A DNA stretch of 64,000 nt from Waddliaceae bacterium. GTDB taxonomy: Bacteria; Chlamydiota; Chlamydiia; Chlamydiales; SLFE01. The stretch spans positions 37,593-101,592 of the forward strand of contig CAWAPJ010000029.1 of the NCBI GenBank assembly GCA_963783885.1. Reading direction: 5' to 3'. Made by a program: the position numbers and the translations under genes. This document shows positions 10,291 through 57,798 of the stretch, piece by piece. Positions within the stretch are counted from its first letter, which is position 1, and each line of letters starts with the position of its first letter. The notes beneath the pieces were generated by a model, which had not been told where the DNA came from, did no database searches, and saw only the letters and a list, made by a program, of their open reading frames with translations.

Positions 10291-12281
10291 ATGGAGTTTC
10301 CTCTACTTCGCGACATCGTCGTAATCTTCGCCCTTTCCATTGCGGTGCTGCTCGTCTGCCACCGCTTGAGGATATCTTCTGTCGTGGGATTTATCCTGAC
10401 CGGAATTTTAGCAGGCCCCCACGGGTTCGGGCTGATTTCAGCTATCGGGCAGGTGGATATCCTGGCTAAGATCGGGGTGATCCTTCTTCTTTTTACCATC
10501 GGGATGGAATTTTCACCGAGGCGCATTTTGGCAATGCGGAAGGGATTTTTTATCGGCGGCGCCCTGCAGGTAGGCTTCACTATTTTGGGAGGGTTTGCCG
10601 TAGCCAAGCTCGTGGGCAGGCCTGCTTCCGAATCCTTGTTTCTCGGCTTCCTTCTTTCTTTAAGCAGCACAGCTATTGTTTTGAAGCTGCTCAGCGACAG
10701 GGGCGAGGGCAAAACGCCTCATGGCAATCTCATTTTGGCGATCCTAATTTTTCAGGACGTGATCATCGTGATGATGATGCTTATGATCCCGCTGCTGGCG
10801 GGGGAAGGTGCGCTCCCTTTAAGGGATGCTCCCATTGTCTTAGGGAAAGGGGCGCTGATTATTGGCATTAGCTTTTTTTCGCGATTAAGGTTGTTCCTTC
10901 TCTTCTCGACCATGTCGCGAGGACGCGCAGCCGCGAACTCTTTTTGCTTACGGTCCTTGCGATTTGCTTTTCGGTGACCTGGAGTACCTCGCTTGCGGGA
11001 CTGTCAATTTCTCTTGGTGCCTTCTTGTCGGGAATGATTCTTTCCGAATCGGAATATCGCCATCAGGCTTTGGGAAACATTCTTCCCTTTCAAGACATTT
11101 TCACCAGCTTTTTCTTTATTTCCATCGGGATGCTTTTGCAGCTTGAGTTTGTCTATCAGAACCTAGTGTTGATCCTGGCGGTTTGTTTCGGTGTTTTGCT
11201 TCTTAAGGGATTTGTTGCCGGCAACACGTCTTTGATTTTAGGCGCTCCATTAAGGACGTCGATCCTTGTGGGGTTTGCTCTGAGCCAGGTTGGAGAATTC
11301 GCTTTTGTTCTGGCCCAGGCGGGAATGAGAACAGGCATGGGAGAGGTCTGGTTTTATCAACTGTTTTTGTCTGTATCTCTGCTGACAATGCTGGCGACTC
11401 CCTTTTTAATCAAGTCGGCTCCGTTTGCAGCAAACTTTGTCTGCCGTCTCCCCTTGCCGGGGAAGCTGCTCTCCGGAAGGAATATGCGGGAGCTGGAAGA
11501 AGAAAAGGGACTCGCAAATCATGTGGTGATCACCGGATTTGGAACAGTGGGAAAAAACCTTGCCGAGTCCTGCAGAATGGCAAATGTGAATTTCTGTGTT
11601 TTAGAGACCAACCTCGATTTAATTAGGCAGCAAAGAAAAGAGGGAGTGCCGATCTACTTTGGGGATGCCGGTCATGTTTCAGTTTTGCAGCACGTCAACA
11701 TAGACAAAGCTTCGACACTCGCCGTGCTGGTGAACAGTCCCTCGGATGAAAGACGGATCGTTCAAGAGGCAAGAAGGGAAAACAGCGAACTTTATATCGT
11801 GGTTAGGACCCATTATAGCGAAGAGTGCGAGGTTTTGTTTCAATTAGGGGCCGACGAGGTCGTCATCGATGAGTTCGAGTCATCGGTTCAAGTGGTCAAC
11901 CGCATCATGAGCCGCTACGGAGTGTCCTATTCCGAACGGGACCGCATCATCAACAGGCTTCCCGGAGGCCTAGACGATATGCTTCGGGAACCCCGCAACC
12001 CTTTTCTGAAATTTACCCAGCTTGAACTTGATTTGCCTCATGTGCTTTTGGAGGCCTGGGATGTCAGCCCCGGGGCCCCTCTTTGCGACAAGGCAGTACA
12101 GGAGTCGAATCTTAGGCCCGAATACGGAATTTCCATTTTAATCATCATCCGGGGCGGGAAAAATATTACAGACATTTCCGGTAAAACCCGCATTTTGGAA
12201 GGGGATAAGCTTGTCGTCTTTGGAGATAAGGGAAAATTAAGGGAAGCGGAAGTTCTTTTTAAGGCGAAAGCCGCTCAATGA
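10291..12281 (+). pseudogene. Kef-type K+/H+ antiporter (CPA2) with RCK/TrkA-N and TrkA-C domains, split by a 1-nt frameshift
   Basis: ORF 10291..10977 carries the N-terminal TMs. ORF 10944..12281 continues upstream in its own frame as AIKVVPSLLDHVARTRSRELFLLTVLAICF. The frames meet at the T7 run 10873..10879, and a T8 would give one 663-aa protein. The C-terminal part has the Rossmann motif VVITGFGTVGKN. Confidence 0.8.
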
Positions 12282-12882
12282 TCCACGATCCGTTTTTAAG
12301 CAGATACCGAAACCTGTCATGAAGGCGGTGGGGCCGCCCCTGCCAAAATTCCACATAATCCGGCAAAAGGCGGTAGCCTCCCCAAAACTCTGGAAGAGGG
12401 ATCTCTTTGCCTTCAAAACGGTTTTTTGTTTCTTCCCATTTTTTGTCGAGTTCTCCGCGGGAGGCGATCACTTCATCTTGTTTCGAGGCATAAGCGCTGA
12501 TTCGGCTTTCCCTAGGACGAGTTGCGAAATAGTCTTCGGATTCACTGCGGCTGACTTTTTCGACTCTCCCTTCTACGACGATCTGCCTTGCCAGGGCAGT
12601 CCATAGAAACGTTGCCGATGCGCGGGGGTTTTCCTCAATTTCCAAAGCTTTGCGGCTTTCGTAGTTGGTAAAAAAAACAAGGCCCCCCTTAGTGATTCCT
12701 TTTAAAAGGACTGTCCGGCTCGACGGTCTTCCATCTTTTGAGGCGGTGCAAAGAATCATCGCATTGGGTTCGATTATTTCAGCATTTGCAGTATCGTCGA
12801 TCCAGATTTTTAATTGATCGAGGGGATTTTCTTTGAGAAGCGATCTTCTGAGCTGCTGCAAAGGGTTTTTCCTAATATCCAT
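12259..12882 (-). CDS. pdxH: pyridoxamine 5'-phosphate oxidase
   Basis: The 207-aa ORF has PdxH blocks (RTVLLKG, FFTNYESRK, VEFWQGRPHRLHDR). Confidence 0.9.
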   Translation of the reverse strand: MDIRKNPLQQLRRSLLKENPLDQLKIWIDDTANAEIIEPNAMILCTASKDGRPSSRTVLLKGITKGGLVFFTNYESRKALEIEENPRASATFLWTALARQIVVEGRVEKVSRSESEDYFATRPRESRISAYASKQDEVIASRGELDKKWEETKNRFEGKEIPLPEFWGGYRLLPDYVEFWQGRPHRLHDRFRYLLKNGSWIIERLSP

Positions 12883-12930
12883 TGACTGGGCCTCCTTAAC
12901 TCATTTATAAGCGAAAGCAATGAGGTGTCA

Positions 12931-14133
12931 ATGGAAAAGCTGTTAATCGATGAACTCGATATGAAGGGGAAAAAAGTTCTGATGCGCGTCGATTTCAACG
13001 TCCCTCTGAATGACAGAGGCGGCATTTCCGACGACACGAGGATAAAGGAAGCGCTTCCCTCGATCCAATATGTCCTCGATCATGGCAAAAGCCTCATATT
13101 GATGAGTCATTTGGGAAGGCCGAAAGGAAAAGAAGAGAGATTTACTTTAAAGCCTTGCGCCAAAAGACTCTCCGAGCTTCTCGGAAAAGAGGTCAAAATG
13201 GCTCCTGACTGCGTGGGAGGCGAAGTGGTCAAAATGGCGCAAAACTTAAAACAGGGCGACGTGCTGCTTTTGGAAAATCTCCGTTTTCATCAAGCCGAAA
13301 CAAAACCTGAGTCCGATCCCGATTTTGCAAAAAATCTCTCTTGTCTTGCCGATATTTATGTGAATGATGCTTTTGGAACGGCCCATCGGAAGCACTCCTC
13401 GACATATGAAGTGGCAAAATATTTTCAAGGTTCGGCAGCGGCCGGCTATCTTATGAAAAAAGAAATTGACAATTTGGGAAAAGTTCTGAACAATCCCGCC
13501 CATCCCTTCTATGCGATCATCGGCGGAGTTAAGATATCGACAAAAATTGGGGTGATCTCTTCTCTTCTGGAAAAAGTAGACGGCCTGTTGATCTGCGGGG
13601 CCATGGCCCACACTTTTTTAAAGGGGAAGGGAATTGCAATTGGGGATTCCCTTTACGAAGAGGAATATCTCGATACGGCCTTTCAAATCATGGAAGAGTG
13701 CCGCGAAAAAAAAATCAAACTTATTCTTCCCGTGGATGTTCTTGCCGTCAGGGAAATTAAAGAAAAGCAGCAGCCTGTCGCTTTCGATTTGACAGAAGGG
13801 GGCGTTGCGAGCGGATATCAGGCCGTTGATATCGGTCCGAAAACCATCAAACTTTATAAGGACTCCCTTTCAGATGCCAAAACCGTTTTGTGGAACGGAC
13901 CTGCCGGGATATTCGAAATTCCCGAATTTTCCGAAGGAACGCGCGCTGTGGCCGAAATTTTGGGGTCGCTTAGGGCGGAAACCCTCGTTGGAGGAGGGGA
14001 TTCGGTTTCTGCTGTCTCCTCACTGGGACTTGCGGGCAAAATGACCCACATCTCCACCGGAGGGGGCGCTGCCCTCGAATTTATTCAAAATGGCACCCTC
14101 CCCGGCATTGAAGTCTTAACTGATAAGGTTTAA
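12931..14133 (+). CDS. pgk: phosphoglycerate kinase
   Basis: Motifs include MRVDFNVP, MSHLGRPKG, NDAFGTAHR and STGGGA. I prefer the ATG at 12931 (a GAGG lies 5 nt upstream) over the GTG at 12925 used by the ORF track. Confidence 0.9.
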   Translation: MEKLLIDELDMKGKKVLMRVDFNVPLNDRGGISDDTRIKEALPSIQYVLDHGKSLILMSHLGRPKGKEERFTLKPCAKRLSELLGKEVKMAPDCVGGEVVKMAQNLKQGDVLLLENLRFHQAETKPESDPDFAKNLSCLADIYVNDAFGTAHRKHSSTYEVAKYFQGSAAAGYLMKKEIDNLGKVLNNPAHPFYAIIGGVKISTKIGVISSLLEKVDGLLICGAMAHTFLKGKGIAIGDSLYEEEYLDTAFQIMEECREKKIKLILPVDVLAVREIKEKQQPVAFDLTEGGVASGYQAVDIGPKTIKLYKDSLSDAKTVLWNGPAGIFEIPEFSEGTRAVAEILGSLRAETLVGGGDSVSAVSSLGLAGKMTHISTGGGAALEFIQNGTLPGIEVLTDKV

Positions 14134-14258: not shown

Positions 14259-15812
14259 ATGTCGGGTTCGACAGAAGCAGAGTTTTCCGGATGGCGATCG
14301 TTTTTTTGGCCCATCCACAGTCATGAGCTTCGCAAGCTCCTCCCCATGCTGTTGATCTTATTTCTCATCACCTTCAATTACAACGTTCTTAGGACGATGA
14401 AAGACACTCTCGTCGTCGCTACCGGCAAGCATTCCGGTGCCGAAGTCATTCCGTTTATCAAACTCTGGATTATGTTTCCCTGCTCCATTTTGCTTACATA
14501 TCTGTTTACCAAGCTCACCAACAAATTGTCTCGAGAGTTTGTTTTCTATTCCATGATGTCGGTCTTTTTGATCTTCTTTGCTTTTTTTATCTTTGTGCTC
14601 TATCCCTGCAGAGAATTCATTCATCCGCACGAGTTTGCCGACAAGCTCCAAATGTTTCTGCCCGTGGGAATGAAGGGTTTTGTTGCGATGATCCGCAACT
14701 GGTCATTTTCAAGCTTTTATGTCATGTCCGAGCTTTGGGGGAATATTGTCCTCTTTTTACTTTTCTGGGGATTTGCCAATCAGATCACTCATCTTGGCGA
14801 GGCGAAACGCTTCTACGCGATTTTGGGAATCGGAACAAACGTCTCGGGAATCATTGCGGGTCAATTCGCCGTGCAGATATCAAAAACCGAAATGATTTCG
14901 TTTATTCCCTACGGCAGCCGCCCATGGGACCAGCAAATGCTGGTTCTAGTCTCAATCGTTTTGATTTGCGGCATAGCCGCGATGGCCGTTTTCCGATGGA
15001 TGCACACACATGTTCTCGATACTGAAACCGGTGAGGCAATTGAGACGTCGAATGGAGAGGTCAAAGGGCGGATGTCGATGCGAGAAAACTTTTCTTATCT
15101 GTTTAAGTCGCGCTATCTGATGTATATTGCCGTCATCACAATAGCCTATAACATCATTATCAATCTCGTAGAAGTTCTGTGGAAACACCAGGTTCATGAA
15201 CTCTATTCTAATCCAAGCGAGTACAATCTTTACATGAACCAGGTCATGGTGATTATCGGCATTCTGGCAACCATCACATCCTTTTTGGGCACCGGCAACC
15301 TAATACGAAGGTGCGGCTGGACCAAAACAGCTATGCTCACGCCGATTATCCTGCTGCTGACAAGCGTTTTCTTTTTTGGGCTGTTTTTTGCAAAAGAGTA
15401 CTTTCTCGATGGGGCTCAGGTTCTCTTTGGAACAGCGCCCATCGCCCTTGTCGTTTTTTTCGGCACCCTTCAAAATGTTTTGAGCCGGGGTGCCAAGTAC
15501 ACAATTTATGATGCCACGAAAGAAGTGGCTTTTATCCCTCTAAGCTCAGAATCGAAAATTAAAGGCAAAGCCGCAATCGATGGAGTTTGCAATCGACTCG
15601 GCAAATCCGGGGGATCGGCGATTCATCAGGTCTTGCTGATTTCCTTCTCTACACTCTCTTTAAGCGCCCCTTACGTTGCCGGTTTTCTCCTCGCGATCAT
15701 AGGGATTTGGATGGGAGCCGTATCCTCTCTTGGGAAACAATTCAACTTCCTGACCACCGATGAGGTCAAAACCCCTGCCGATTCAGACGCCGAACCTGTC
15801 TTACAAGGATAA
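14259..15812 (+). CDS. ntt: ATP/ADP (nucleotide) translocase, Ntt/Npt family
   Basis: The 517-aa polytopic protein has conserved Ntt blocks (FWPIHSHELRKLLPM, NYNVLRTMKD, KGKAAIDGVCNRLGKSGG). Confidence 0.9.
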   Translation: MSGSTEAEFSGWRSFFWPIHSHELRKLLPMLLILFLITFNYNVLRTMKDTLVVATGKHSGAEVIPFIKLWIMFPCSILLTYLFTKLTNKLSREFVFYSMMSVFLIFFAFFIFVLYPCREFIHPHEFADKLQMFLPVGMKGFVAMIRNWSFSSFYVMSELWGNIVLFLLFWGFANQITHLGEAKRFYAILGIGTNVSGIIAGQFAVQISKTEMISFIPYGSRPWDQQMLVLVSIVLICGIAAMAVFRWMHTHVLDTETGEAIETSNGEVKGRMSMRENFSYLFKSRYLMYIAVITIAYNIIINLVEVLWKHQVHELYSNPSEYNLYMNQVMVIIGILATITSFLGTGNLIRRCGWTKTAMLTPIILLLTSVFFFGLFFAKEYFLDGAQVLFGTAPIALVVFFGTLQNVLSRGAKYTIYDATKEVAFIPLSSESKIKGKAAIDGVCNRLGKSGGSAIHQVLLISFSTLSLSAPYVAGFLLAIIGIWMGAVSSLGKQFNFLTTDEVKTPADSDAEPVLQG

Positions 15813-15918
15813 CTAACTCTTAACAAAATTAATTTAATTTTAGCGTTTTATAAGTTTATTTTTTAAGTTGATTTTAATTATTAAATGTGGTAATTTTTAT
15901 TTTTAAGGACTTGTTATA

Positions 15919-17499
15919 ATGAAAACAACAAAACAAGCGGAGTTTGGGCCTTTCAGGTCAATATTTTGGCCCTTTTACCGGCGTGAGCTAAAATTGGTCA
16001 TTCCCATGATGCTTATGCTCTTTCTTACCTGCTTTAATTATAGCATCCTTCGCAATCTGAAAGACGTTCTTGTGGTTACCGCGAAATCGTCGGGGGGAGC
16101 CGTAATTCCCTTCATCAAGGTCTGGGCTATGCTTCCCATGGCTGTACTTTCCGCCTATATTTTTACTAAGCTCTCCAACCGATACAGCCAGGAAAAAGTA
16201 TACTACATCATGGTTTGGGGATTTCTCATCGCCTATGTGACATTCGGCTTTATCCTCTATCCGATGCGCGAGAGCCTGGAACTTGTCGGGGTTGCCAGGT
16301 TTTTGGAATCGATCCTTCCGACCGGGGCGCATGGCTTCATATCCATGATCAGGCATTGGTCCTTTACAATGTTTTACGTGATGTGCGAGCTTTGGTCCAG
16401 TATTGTTCTAACGGTTCTTTTTTGGGGTTTTGCCAATGAAATCACCAAAGTAAAAGATGCCCGCCGCCATTATAGCATTTTGGGCGTTGTCTCCAGTATT
16501 TCCGCCGTTATCGCCGGCTTATTGGGCCGCTATTTTTCGAGTCTTGAATACAACCCCAGCCTCCCTTTTGGCAGCGACGCCTTTGAACAGACCATTATGG
16601 AAGTTGTTTTGGCTGTCTTTGTTGTCGGCCTTTTCATTATGGGGTCGTTTTGGTGGCTCAATAAATATGCCCTTAATTCACCCGAGTATATTGACCTTCA
16701 CCGATCAAACCGCGCCTTCAGAATGAGGAAGAAGCAATCTTTAAGAGACAGCTTTACCTTCCTTGCCAAATCCAAATATCTCATCTGTATCGCCGTTATC
16801 GTTGTAGCGTATAATTTGTCGATCAACCTTGTCGAGGTTGTCTGGAAAGATCAATTAAAGAATCTTTATCCCAACCGGGATGACTACTTCATTTATTTGA
16901 GCAATGTCACAATTCTTTTGGGAATCATTTCTTCTGCCGCTTCTTTTTTCATCGGGAAAATCATCGGACGGATCGGGTGGACAAAAACCGCCTTGATCAC
17001 TCCCCTGGTCCTTTTGGCGACCAGCCTGGGATTCTTTGGATTCCTATTTTACCGTCAGTTCATGGTGGATACGACGATTTATTTTATGGGAATGACGCCG
17101 CTGGCTTTAGCCGTCATGTTCGGCGGGGCTCAAAACTGCCTTAGCAAGTCGGCCAAATATTCAATTTTCGATTCGACAAAAGAAATGGTCTTTATTCCAC
17201 TGGACCACGAGACCAAGCTCAAAGGGAAAGCCGCCATAGACGGAGTAGGTTCACGCCTGGGCAAGTCCGGAGGTGCAGTCGTCCATCAGGCGCTGCTTCT
17301 GATCTTTTCGTCGCTCACACAAAGCGCCCCTTATGTTGCCACTATCTTGATGGGAGTTATTTTTGTCTGGTTTGGGGCGGTCAAAGTACTCGGCCTGGAA
17401 TTTGCCAAAATGGCTCTTGAGAGAAATGACACTTCTGAAGGGATCACTGACCAGATTAAATCCAAACCTCAGCTTGCAAAGTTAAGTCCTGAAAGCTAA
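15919..17499 (+). CDS. ntt: second nucleotide translocase, Ntt/Npt family (tandem paralog)
   Basis: The 526-aa protein is colinear with the upstream copy (FWPFYRRELKLVIPM, NYSILRNLKD, KGKAAIDGVGSRLGKSGG). Confidence 0.9.
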   Translation: MKTTKQAEFGPFRSIFWPFYRRELKLVIPMMLMLFLTCFNYSILRNLKDVLVVTAKSSGGAVIPFIKVWAMLPMAVLSAYIFTKLSNRYSQEKVYYIMVWGFLIAYVTFGFILYPMRESLELVGVARFLESILPTGAHGFISMIRHWSFTMFYVMCELWSSIVLTVLFWGFANEITKVKDARRHYSILGVVSSISAVIAGLLGRYFSSLEYNPSLPFGSDAFEQTIMEVVLAVFVVGLFIMGSFWWLNKYALNSPEYIDLHRSNRAFRMRKKQSLRDSFTFLAKSKYLICIAVIVVAYNLSINLVEVVWKDQLKNLYPNRDDYFIYLSNVTILLGIISSAASFFIGKIIGRIGWTKTALITPLVLLATSLGFFGFLFYRQFMVDTTIYFMGMTPLALAVMFGGAQNCLSKSAKYSIFDSTKEMVFIPLDHETKLKGKAAIDGVGSRLGKSGGAVVHQALLLIFSSLTQSAPYVATILMGVIFVWFGAVKVLGLEFAKMALERNDTSEGITDQIKSKPQLAKLSPES

Positions 17500-52494: not shown

Positions 52495-52615
52495 CTAAGC
52501 AAAGAACACCTATTCTATACGACATCTTTGATTTTGGGCAAGTAGGTCGCGATACCCTCGAGATAAAAATTTTGTTAGTTAGTTAACTTGATAGAGTCAT
52601 AGATAGTGTGAAAAA

Positions 52616-54242: not shown

Positions 54243-55151
54243 ATGAATTCTATCCGTCGAGTATCTATCTATGAATCTTCCCTAAGAGATGGCTTGCAGG
54301 CTCTTAAACAAAACATTCCTACCAAAGTTAAAATTGGCTTTGGCAAACGACTGGAAAAAGCGGGATTTAAAAATATCGAAGTCGGCAGCGTGACTAAGAT
54401 TGAGCAAATGAGAGATAGCGAAGCGGTCTTTAAAGAGCTGAATAAAAGCGGATCGGCAAAATATTGGACTTTGGTTCCCAATCCGAAAGGTTTGCATAAG
54501 GCCATCATGTGGGGGTGCAGGCATTTTGGGATTCCCGCGTCGGCATCAGACCCTTTTTCTCGCGCCAACATTCGGAGAGGAATTACCGAAGCTTATGAAG
54601 ATTGGCATCTTCCCATGCTTCAGAAAACTGCCTATGAAGGAATAAAAGTACGCTTTTATCTCTCATGCAGTTTCGGATATAAAAGCCCTGATGATGTCAC
54701 TGAAGAGGTTGTTGTCACTCTAGGGTCAATGGCCCATAGATATAACGCCAAAATTGTTCTTTCCGACACGATGGGCTGGGCAACTCCGGATAAAGTCCGA
54801 AGGTTGTTTCAAGAGTTTTGGAATGAAGGTTTTTTACCCAGCGATCTGGCGTTTCACCCGCATGGCCCCCCTAAGCGTGTTATGGAAAATACCGCAGCGG
54901 CAATCCAGGAGTTTATCAAGCGTGAACAGGTACTGGGAGAAGTCGCCGCGGGGGGCTTTGGTTTGGGGGAAATCGACGCTACAATTAGAAATTTTGGAGG
55001 ATGTCCCGCAGCGCAAAAAGCGGCAGGCCGCGATCTCAATAATGTCCCGACGCAGGATGTCATCAGTTATTGCAATGCCCAGAATATCCTCACAGGTGTT
55101 GATCTGGAGAAGGTGAACGAGGCAAGCAACTTTTTTATATCTTCGCTGTAG
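54243..55151 (+). CDS. HMG-CoA lyase-like (HMGL/DRE-TIM) enzyme
   Basis: It has SLRDGLQA at the N-terminus, VPNPKG, and LAFHPHG metal-ligand-like blocks. Length is 302 aa. Confidence 0.65.
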   Translation: MNSIRRVSIYESSLRDGLQALKQNIPTKVKIGFGKRLEKAGFKNIEVGSVTKIEQMRDSEAVFKELNKSGSAKYWTLVPNPKGLHKAIMWGCRHFGIPASASDPFSRANIRRGITEAYEDWHLPMLQKTAYEGIKVRFYLSCSFGYKSPDDVTEEVVVTLGSMAHRYNAKIVLSDTMGWATPDKVRRLFQEFWNEGFLPSDLAFHPHGPPKRVMENTAAAIQEFIKREQVLGEVAAGGFGLGEIDATIRNFGGCPAAQKAAGRDLNNVPTQDVISYCNAQNILTGVDLEKVNEASNFFISSL

Positions 55152-56573: not shown

Positions 56574-56646
56574 TCAACGCGGAGTCGCGGAATATTTTAT
56601 TCTTTAATTTCTTATTGCACCCTTCGTCCCCGCGACTCCGCGTTGA
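56574..56646. repeat. perfect 17-bp inverted repeat with 39-nt spacer in the bioY upstream region
   Basis: TCAACGCGGAGTCGCGG (56574..56590) pairs with CCGCGACTCCGCGTTGA (56630..56646). There is no adjacent T-tract on either strand. Confidence 0.85.
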
Positions 56647-56674: not shown

Positions 56675-57124
56675 TTAGTTTTCCCAGGGAACTTGGGTGC
56701 AAGTGGCTACCCAGCCCATCCAGCTGTCTTTGACATGAGTGATTTTATATCCCTTATCTTCCAATAGCTTTTTCACTTTGACTGCAGTGTGCGGTGTTTC
56801 TGATTGCAGGCGCGACTCATTGATCCACTTGCCGGCAATCGAAAGAATTGTGCAAGAAGTATAGTACTTTTTAGAATTCTCTTCATTGCACTGCAGTCTT
56901 GAGGGAATCTGATTTTCTGTCTTAGTCCCTAGAATTGTAAGCATTCGGCCATCTGCGTCCCCAGGTAACTTGCCGAGGCTTCGGTCTGCTTCGTTGTCCT
57001 GCTTCGGCAACCCCATGAGGGGTTGTCTGCATCGGACGCCTTGCAGCCCTTTGCCCGGGCCGCGTTCTCTGGGGACGCAGATGGCCGAATGCTTACCTAG
57101 AATTGAACGGGTTTGCAGTTGCAT
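56675..57124 (-). CDS. small hypothetical ORF carrying an in-frame MITE insertion
   Basis: The 149-aa ORF has residues about 11-66 encoded by the MITE plus one TSD copy, with ILG duplicated. Excising them leaves a ~93-aa protein of unknown family. Confidence 0.4.
   Translation of the reverse strand: MQLQTRSILGKHSAICVPRERGPGKGLQGVRCRQPLMGLPKQDNEADRSLGKLPGDADGRMLTILGTKTENQIPSRLQCNEENSKKYYTSCTILSIAGKWINESRLQSETPHTAVKVKKLLEDKGYKITHVKDSWMGWVATCTQVPWEN
56928..56937. repeat. left copy of the 10-bp target-site duplication CCTAGAATTG
   Basis: It is identical to 57096..57105 and directly abuts the left TIR. Confidence 0.8.
56938..57095. mobile_element. 158-bp non-autonomous MITE-like element
   Basis: It has perfect 25-bp terminal inverted repeats: TAAGCATTCGGCCATCTGCGTCCCC (56938..56962) and GGGGACGCAGATGGCCGAATGCTTA (57071..57095). 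It has no internal transposase ORF and is flanked by 10-bp direct repeats. Confidence 0.8.
57096..57105. repeat. right copy of the 10-bp target-site duplication CCTAGAATTG
   Basis: It is identical to 56928..56937 and directly abuts the right TIR. Confidence 0.8.
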
Positions 57125-57132
57125 TTTTCTCC

Positions 57133-57798
57133 TTATTCAAAATTAAATCCGGCTTCGGCTAACTCTTTCATAAACGCAGGGGGCAATGAAGTTTCTTTAA
57201 TTTCTTTTTTAGTGCCTGCAGATAACTTGACTGAGTGTTCAGCGCCTTTTCTTATGAGTTTGCAAAAGGCTTCTTCAACATATTGGTATCCTCCTCTTGC
57301 GCCCAGCCTGATCAAATTGATTAATGTGAAGTTATAATGGATTTGTTCAAACTGATCAGTGACGTCAGATTTATCTTTGAATGTGAATTTATCCGCCACA
57401 AAGTCAAGAACGTCTTTAAAATGAGAATCGATGGTGTCTTCAGATTTTCTCATTCGGAAAACAATATCTATCGATTGTTTGGGAGTTAAAGACTCCAGCG
57501 TGAGAAACTCGTTTAAAGGCAAAAAATCTCGGTCATCCCATGAGAATGAGACGGGATTCAACAAGAAGCCGTAGGTGAATAATTTGAAGGCTATAGGTGC
57601 AGGACAGTTAGCGTCGGAAGCGATGCCTTTCAGTTTTCGAAGCAGTTGGGCGTTTGATGGATTCTCAGAGTCATTCAAGATGCTTGCGCCCAATTCATGA
57701 ATTCGGTTTTTTATCTTTTCTCTATCAGCTTGGGGAGAAAGGCTGAGCGCTTTTGTAGTGAGTTCAGAAATTGAGAGTTCTTTACTTTCGATATTCAT
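57133..57798 (-). CDS. hypothetical protein
   Basis: This is a 221-aa ORF. Its ATG overlaps the stop of the ABC permease gene (ATGA). No family is recognised. Confidence 0.5.
   Translation of the reverse strand: MNIESKELSISELTTKALSLSPQADREKIKNRIHELGASILNDSENPSNAQLLRKLKGIASDANCPAPIAFKLFTYGFLLNPVSFSWDDRDFLPLNEFLTLESLTPKQSIDIVFRMRKSEDTIDSHFKDVLDFVADKFTFKDKSDVTDQFEQIHYNFTLINLIRLGARGGYQYVEEAFCKLIRKGAEHSVKLSAGTKKEIKETSLPPAFMKELAEAGFNFE

Follow-up and report, generated by a model that had tools for sequence, protein, structure and literature searches.

Organization of the locus

The window, as we refer to the whole 64-kb stretch of DNA analyzed here, contains on its minus strand a small open reading frame (ORF) that is interrupted close to its start, with the reading frame kept open, by a short element of higher GC content than its surroundings (62% in the element vs. 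45.7% in the window). The element is bounded by perfect terminal inverted repeats (TIRs) and flanked on both sides by a direct repeat that represents a target-site duplication (TSD). The features of the locus are as follows:

56675..57124, minus strand: host ORF encoding 149 aa (P0001), of which 93 remain when the insert is disregarded
56929..56936: left TSD copy, CTAGAATT in the 8-bp reading; with the flanking C and G included, 10 bp (56928-56937)
56937..57096: non-autonomous element, GTAAGC...GCTTAC, 160 bp as re-read here, with no transposase and a long hairpin fold, absent at the orthologous site of the related contig L004
56937..56964, plus strand: left TIR, 28 nt, perfect, GTAAGCATTCGGCCATCTGCGTCCCCAG, an apparent IS66-type terminus
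57008..57025: central hairpin CAACCCC-ATGA-GGGGTTG (CAACCCCATGAGGGGTTG), the apex of the element-wide fold
57069..57096, minus strand: right TIR, the exact reverse complement of the left TIR
57097..57104: right TSD copy, CTAGAATT in the 8-bp reading
57129..57134, minus strand: Shine-Dalgarno motif AAGGAG, read from the sequence, 4 nt upstream of the host ATG

The AAGGAG motif shares bases with the stop codon of the 221-aa gene upstream, so that the two genes are joined in the manner of an operon. This upstream gene (57133-57798, minus strand) is itself an orphan, located between znuB and the small ORF, and searches of Pfam and NCBIfam returned nothing for either the host ORF or the 221-aa gene. 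In L004, the counterpart of the 221-aa gene is called as a 56-aa ORF only and znuB is split in two, which may reflect either long-read frameshift errors or real decay.

With respect to the nature of the host, two tandem genes at 14259-17499 of the window (plus strand) match the NTP/NDP exchange transporter model TIGR00769 above its cutoff, with 549 and 523 bits, and a tail-specific protease in the window matches the Chlamydia CT441 model, likewise above cutoff. NTP/NDP exchange transporters are a hallmark of nucleotide parasitism in Chlamydiota and Rickettsiales. Thus, the transporters together with the CT441-type protease, and with a genome size of ~2.3 Mb in the relative represented by L004, point to an environmental member of the Chlamydiota.

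Anatomy and boundaries of the element

A 25-nt inverted repeat, TAAGCATTCGGCCATCTGCGTCCCC, is located at 56938-56962, with its reverse complement at 57071-57095; these are the only two matches to this sequence in the window with up to 3 mismatches, and none of 100 shuffles yielded a match. In its full extent of 28 nt, the perfect TIR is the sole substantial short-range inverted repeat within the 64 kb. Two copies of the direct repeat CCTAGAATTG, and no others in the window, abut the element, at 56928-56937 and 57096-57105. Within the element, the heptamer GCTTCGG is present at 56978-56984 and 57001-57007, along with a variant, GCTTCGT, at 56988-56994. The whole element is predicted to fold into one long hairpin, with a free energy of -110.9 kcal/mol for the plus strand and -108.2 kcal/mol for the minus strand (z of about -12); the inner 102 nt alone are weakly palindromic (z of -2.6). 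Six-frame translation of the 160 bp yields peptides of at most 53 aa, which are too short for a transposase. The elevated GC content, the internal hairpin, the GCTTCGG repeats and the inability to encode a transposase had all been pointed out in a preliminary description of this locus, and all of them were found.

Comparison with Rfam revealed no family covering the element, the single weak match in the scanned region lying outside it, at 57330-57382. Furthermore, the element and its immediate surroundings are devoid of promoter-like sites, and the element itself of terminator-like sites, so that it is not an obvious regulatory cassette.

The exact boundaries are ambiguous because the last base of each direct-repeat copy can also be read as the end of the element, which creates overlaps of 1 nt. 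Three readings follow, namely 158 bp with a 10-bp TSD, 160 bp with an 8-bp TSD, and an asymmetric variant with a 9-bp TSD, all of which are allowed by the sequence alone. The preliminary description adopted the first of these, with 25-nt TIRs; the repeats that it reported are indeed present, but their extents are best re-read as a 160-bp element with 28-nt TIRs and an 8-bp TSD of the IS66 type, the boundary reading that appears to fit a known transposase family. This reading requires two coincidences in the flanks, each with a chance of 1 in 4.

An empty site in a related genome

Two Logan assemblies that derive from different sequencing runs (L002 and L003) contain the filled site in identical form; it is therefore not an artifact of one assembly. 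The contig from L002 ends inside the element, which could be taken as a hint that the element is multi-copy; we rejected this hint as weak given that L003 reads straight through, and also because the 28-nt inverted repeat is shorter than the k of the assembler (assumed to be 31).

When the 149-aa product of the host ORF was used to query 5.8 billion proteins, the only matches were the query itself and a 93-aa protein, P0002, which is encoded on a 2.29-Mb contig (L004). This contig is syntenic with the window over ~17 kb, with a nucleotide identity of 84-92% (~88%), and the shared gene set consists of dnaK, rseP, dxr, znuABC, the small ORF, bioY, a BPL_N gene and an HMGL-like gene. The alignment of P0002 with P0001 includes both ends of the two proteins, with a clean gap of 56 residues between them. 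Where L004 has a single CAATTTTAGA, the window has CAATTCTAGG, the element and CAATTCTAGG again. The same relationship is seen at the DNA level, with ...TTCAATTTTAGAAACTAAA... in L004 corresponding to ...TTCAATTCTAGG, the element and CAATTCTAGGGACTAAG... in the window, and in the BLAST alignment bases 10020-10028 of L004 map to both repeat copies of the window. Given that L004 contains an uninterrupted gene with one copy of the repeat, the element was inserted, with duplication of the target site, after the split of the two lineages.

The target-site duplication proposed in the preliminary description, which had also pointed to sister strains as the place to look for the empty site, is thereby confirmed, L004 having one repeat copy and no element. 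The transposition had moreover been described as very recent. It postdates the separation from the L004 lineage, for which dS is about 0.3-0.7 (about 0.4-0.7 in the neighboring genes), and the comparison dates it no more narrowly than that. The locus thus presents a textbook case of polymorphic transposition, with the empty site preserved in a relative, in a chlamydia-like lineage.

The host ORF and the in-frame outcome of the insertion

The element entered the host ORF after the first base of codon 10. Its footprint, i.e., the element plus one TSD copy, is 168 nt or 56 codons, and the 56 residues that it adds are KHSAICVPR...DGRMLTILG (KHSAICVPRERGPGKGLQGVRCRQPLMGLPKQDNEADRSLGKLPGDADGRMLTILG). 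As previously described, the ORF at 56675..57124 remains open and reads MQLQTRSILG, followed by the insert and TILGTKTEN. With a constant footprint of 168 nt, the frame downstream of the insertion is always kept, and three of the six frames of the element are free of stop codons; the prior chance of an open ORF is therefore ~50%. Three or more open frames are found in 12.5% of composition-matched shuffles. The in-frame outcome is unremarkable, and there is no sign that the element has adapted to coding.

These observations bear on the possibility that the element is a protein-coding palindromic element of the RPE type, that is, a selfish repeat adapted to ORFs, the encoded peptide being part of its biology. 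The size of ~150 bp, the palindromic structure, the in-frame position, the footprint that is a multiple of 3 and the three open frames out of six all resemble RPEs, as does the obligate-intracellular type of the host, and the precedent has been reviewed (PMC10969869). However, the number of open frames is within the range of chance, the peptides from all six frames of the element are found in no other protein among the 5.8 billion searched, and with classical TIRs and a duplication at hand, ordinary DDE transposition suffices to account for the insertion. We therefore consider an RPE-type origin very improbable.

Without the insert, the host ORF consists of 93 codons in both the window and L004, with conserved start and stop codons and no indels. 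In the comparison with P0002, its dN/dS is 0.33, as against 0.48-1.84 for the other five frames and ~0.9 for out-of-frame controls; for the neighboring genes, dN/dS is about 0.10-0.16. Given this dN/dS value, the conserved start and stop, the lack of indels and the strong Shine-Dalgarno motif, the host ORF probably represents a genuine orphan gene under weak constraint. The protein family has only two members in the protein database, and AlphaFold modeling of the chimera was uninformative (pLDDT 39). Most likely, the 56-residue insert has no function of its own and is tolerated, being neutral or mildly deleterious.

Similarity of the termini to IS66 elements

The IS66 family is characterized by inverted repeats of 20-30 bp that start with GTAAGCG and by direct repeats of 8 bp, and its described members come mostly from Proteobacteria (PMC11946415). 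For ISPsk01, the inverted repeat has been reported as GTAAGCGTCCGGCGAACTCACCTT (PMC12888890). For a direct comparison, annotated IS66 elements of plasmids were retrieved with a TnpB-like query, and four of them were examined. An IS66 element of Acuticoccus has the left inverted repeat GTAAGCGTACGGCGTGCTCGCC and is flanked on both sides by GGTGTAAT, an 8-bp duplication; likewise, ISEc22 has the left inverted repeat GTAAGCGTACAGCCTGAACCG and GTTTGTTG on both flanks, again a duplication of 8 bp. A third element provided the right end GTAAGCGACTCG and the fourth had no clear ends. The first 50 kb of pO157 contained no IS66 copy.

The TIR of the window element, GTAAGCATTCGGCCATCT, shares with ISPsk01 and the Acuticoccus element the pattern GTAAGC-R-T-N-C-G-G-C, from which ISEc22 departs by an A at the tenth position. 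The seventh base of the TIR is A, whereas G is the commonest base at this position in IS66. When either base is accepted there (GTAAGCG/A), the TIR of the window element, with its length of 28 nt and its GTAAGCA-type start, conforms to the IS66 description. The element thus resembles the IS66 elements ISEc22, ISPsk01 and IS679 in its 28-nt TIR of the GTAAGC type and in a sequence that is compatible with an 8-bp TSD; it differs from them in that it is only 160 bp long, lacks tnpA, tnpB and tnpC, and resides in a chlamydia-like host. Based on the GTAAGC-type ends and the compatible 8-bp TSD, we infer that the element belongs with a transposase of the IS66 type.

An alternative that corresponds to the boundaries drawn in the preliminary description is that the element is a MITE of another IS family, with a TSD of 10 bp (or 9 bp) and the termini TAAGC...GCTTA (TAAGCATTCGG). 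The direct repeat is perfect over 10 bp, and the probability of a chance extension from 8 to 10 bp is ~1/16. Nevertheless, we know of no family that combines TAAGC termini with 10-bp duplications. The ISAs1 family, with duplications of 8-10 bp, has CAGGG ends (PMC11946415), and the combination of GTAAGC with 8 bp agrees with what is published on IS66 and with the Acuticoccus element and ISEc22 examined above, so that an assignment to another family seems quite improbable.

Two-part terminal-pattern scans of the JGI and IMG/VR collections detected unrelated short elements that possess the same 12-nt ends with other interiors, and for one metagenomic short element the left inverted repeat, GTAAGCATTCGGCGAACC, is intermediate between the TIR of the window element and the inverted repeat of ISPsk01. 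The short elements include those on the contigs L005-L008 from JGI (for example, 148 bp at 682-829 of L008) and one of 126 bp from IMG/VR (12281-12406 of L014), all with the ends GTAAGCATTCGG...CCGAATGCTTAC; their interiors differ from that of the window element, and no recognizable duplication flanks them. The recurrence of these ends suggests that an IS66 sub-lineage with the given 12-nt termini repeatedly yields miniature derivatives.

Searches for further copies and for the parent element

The preliminary description predicted other copies and a cognate autonomous IS. None came to light in any of the collections covered. The window, as the part of the source genome that was covered, contains neither a further match to the TIR nor an inverted repeat of IS-like size; the exact 20-mer of the TIR has a single match, in Cellulomonas, among 185,579 species-representative genomes, and none in the JGI metagenomes; the 18-mer has none in IMG/VR; BLASTN of the element against the PLSDB plasmids produced chance fragments only; and the other five frames of the element have no match among the 5.8 billion proteins. 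The Cellulomonas 20-mer has no partner repeat and was dismissed as a chance match. Two insertions of ~1.4 kb in L004, considered as candidates for the parent IS, lack GTAAGC ends.

The element itself has the attributes of a MITE, with a length of 160 bp and no transposase, perfect 28-nt TIRs, and a TSD that was checked against the empty site in L004. That it represents a MITE family, and that a transposase is active somewhere in the genome, as had been proposed, we infer rather than observe. From a single copy, a mobilized MITE and an internally deleted full-length IS cannot be told apart. The latter would be a remnant formed in situ, whereby a full-length IS of the IS66 type inserted and later lost its interior, the short element never having transposed. 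The same TIRs and the same duplication are expected in this scenario, and the presence of only one copy in the searched collections is in line with it. In contrast, weak palindromy extends into the interior of the element beyond its TIRs, and the element is predicted to form one hairpin from end to end; such palindromy is more typical of MITEs than of the subterminal regions of IS elements. Moreover, a random deletion would need more coincidences to leave a length divisible by 3 together with an open frame, and the existence of other short elements with the same termini suggests that the IS lineage spawns mobilizable miniatures. On balance, we regard an in situ remnant as unlikely.

The proposed course of the insertion

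The explanation that we consider probable is that a miniature element mobilized by an IS66 transposase was inserted into codon 10 of a lineage-restricted small gene after the split from the L004 lineage. Under this proposal, an IS66-family DDE transposase would act in trans by binding both 28-nt termini of the GTAAGC type. Staggered cuts 8 bp apart would then be made in the target CTAGAATT, and repair of the gaps would duplicate these 8 bp. The resulting 168 nt, which in this orientation and frame contain no stop codon, would leave the ORF open and introduce a Gly/Arg/Pro-rich insert of 56 residues near the N-terminus of the protein. Such an event would imply activity of an IS66-type transposase in this genome or its vicinity, perhaps following horizontal acquisition, in view of the difference in GC content (62% vs. 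46%). It would also illustrate how a single event can lengthen a small orphan protein by 56 residues.

Comparison with known palindromic elements and MITEs

In-frame fusions of short repeats with host ORFs have been documented for RPEs, ERIC, QMITE1 and the Anabaena MITEs (PMC10969869, PMC5896051). Like the RPEs, the window element is a palindrome of ~150 bp, within the ~100-150 bp considered for such elements, that is located in frame in a protein-coding gene, in a bacterium of the intracellular type, and adds a peptide to the product of this gene. Unlike the RPEs, which are multi-copy and contribute conserved peptides to many genes, it is a single-copy element with a unique peptide, and no recurrence of this peptide in unrelated proteins was found (PMC10969869). 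ERIC, the Coxiella QMITE1, the Anabaena MITEs and the Correia elements are likewise short, hairpin-forming elements with TIRs and no transposase (PMC10969869, PMC5896051), from which the window element differs in its unrelated sequence, its apparently very low copy number and its likely derivation from the IS66 family. Our literature search found no description of MITEs in the phylum Chlamydiota.

A more far-reaching possibility is that environmental Chlamydiota harbor a family of palindromic mobile elements compatible with ORFs that has so far gone undescribed and to which the element belongs, driven by an IS66-type transposase that this low-GC intracellular lineage acquired horizontally from a GC-richer donor. 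If this were the case, the members of the family, whose footprint would always be divisible by three and which would offer several frames without stops, would time and again insert peptide segments into proteins, as a convergent counterpart of the Rickettsia RPEs. We view this as a long shot. Mobilization of a miniature element by an IS66 transposase, the reading favored here, is a known kind of event, of which this locus would offer a clean instance, and involves no new mechanism; accounting for it is of value for the annotation of these genomes and for surveys of mobile elements in Chlamydiota and leaves the current understanding unchanged.

Other insertions and repeats in the neighborhood

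A different MITE-like element is present in L004 at ~10329-10487, which corresponds to 56629-56634 of the window, where it is absent. This element is AT-rich and ~157 bp long, has perfect 22-nt TIR cores (TTTTACCCATAACTTTTTTTTG) within inverted ends of ~38 nt, and is located between the small ORF and bioY. The window and L004 each carry their own private miniature element, ~300 bp apart, which suggests activity of small non-autonomous elements in this lineage.

The gap between the small ORF and bioY in the window also contains a perfect 16-bp inverted repeat, CAACGCGGAGTCGCGG / CCGCGACTCCGCGTTG, at 56575-56590 and 56630-56645, with a spacer of 39 nt. This repeat, which the terminator scan did not report, could form a hairpin that marks the end of a transcript or has a regulatory role upstream of the biotin genes. 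Most of the repeat is conserved in L004, in which the AT-rich element landed beside the left arm.

The two ~1.4-kb insertions of L004 mentioned above are located at 11980-13423 and 15979-17399, corresponding to ~55123-55149 and ~52541-52565 of the window, respectively. The first contains a hypothetical gene of 251 aa and the second one of 472 aa, neither of which has a match in Pfam, and the second insertion lies beside a tRNA-Ser gene.
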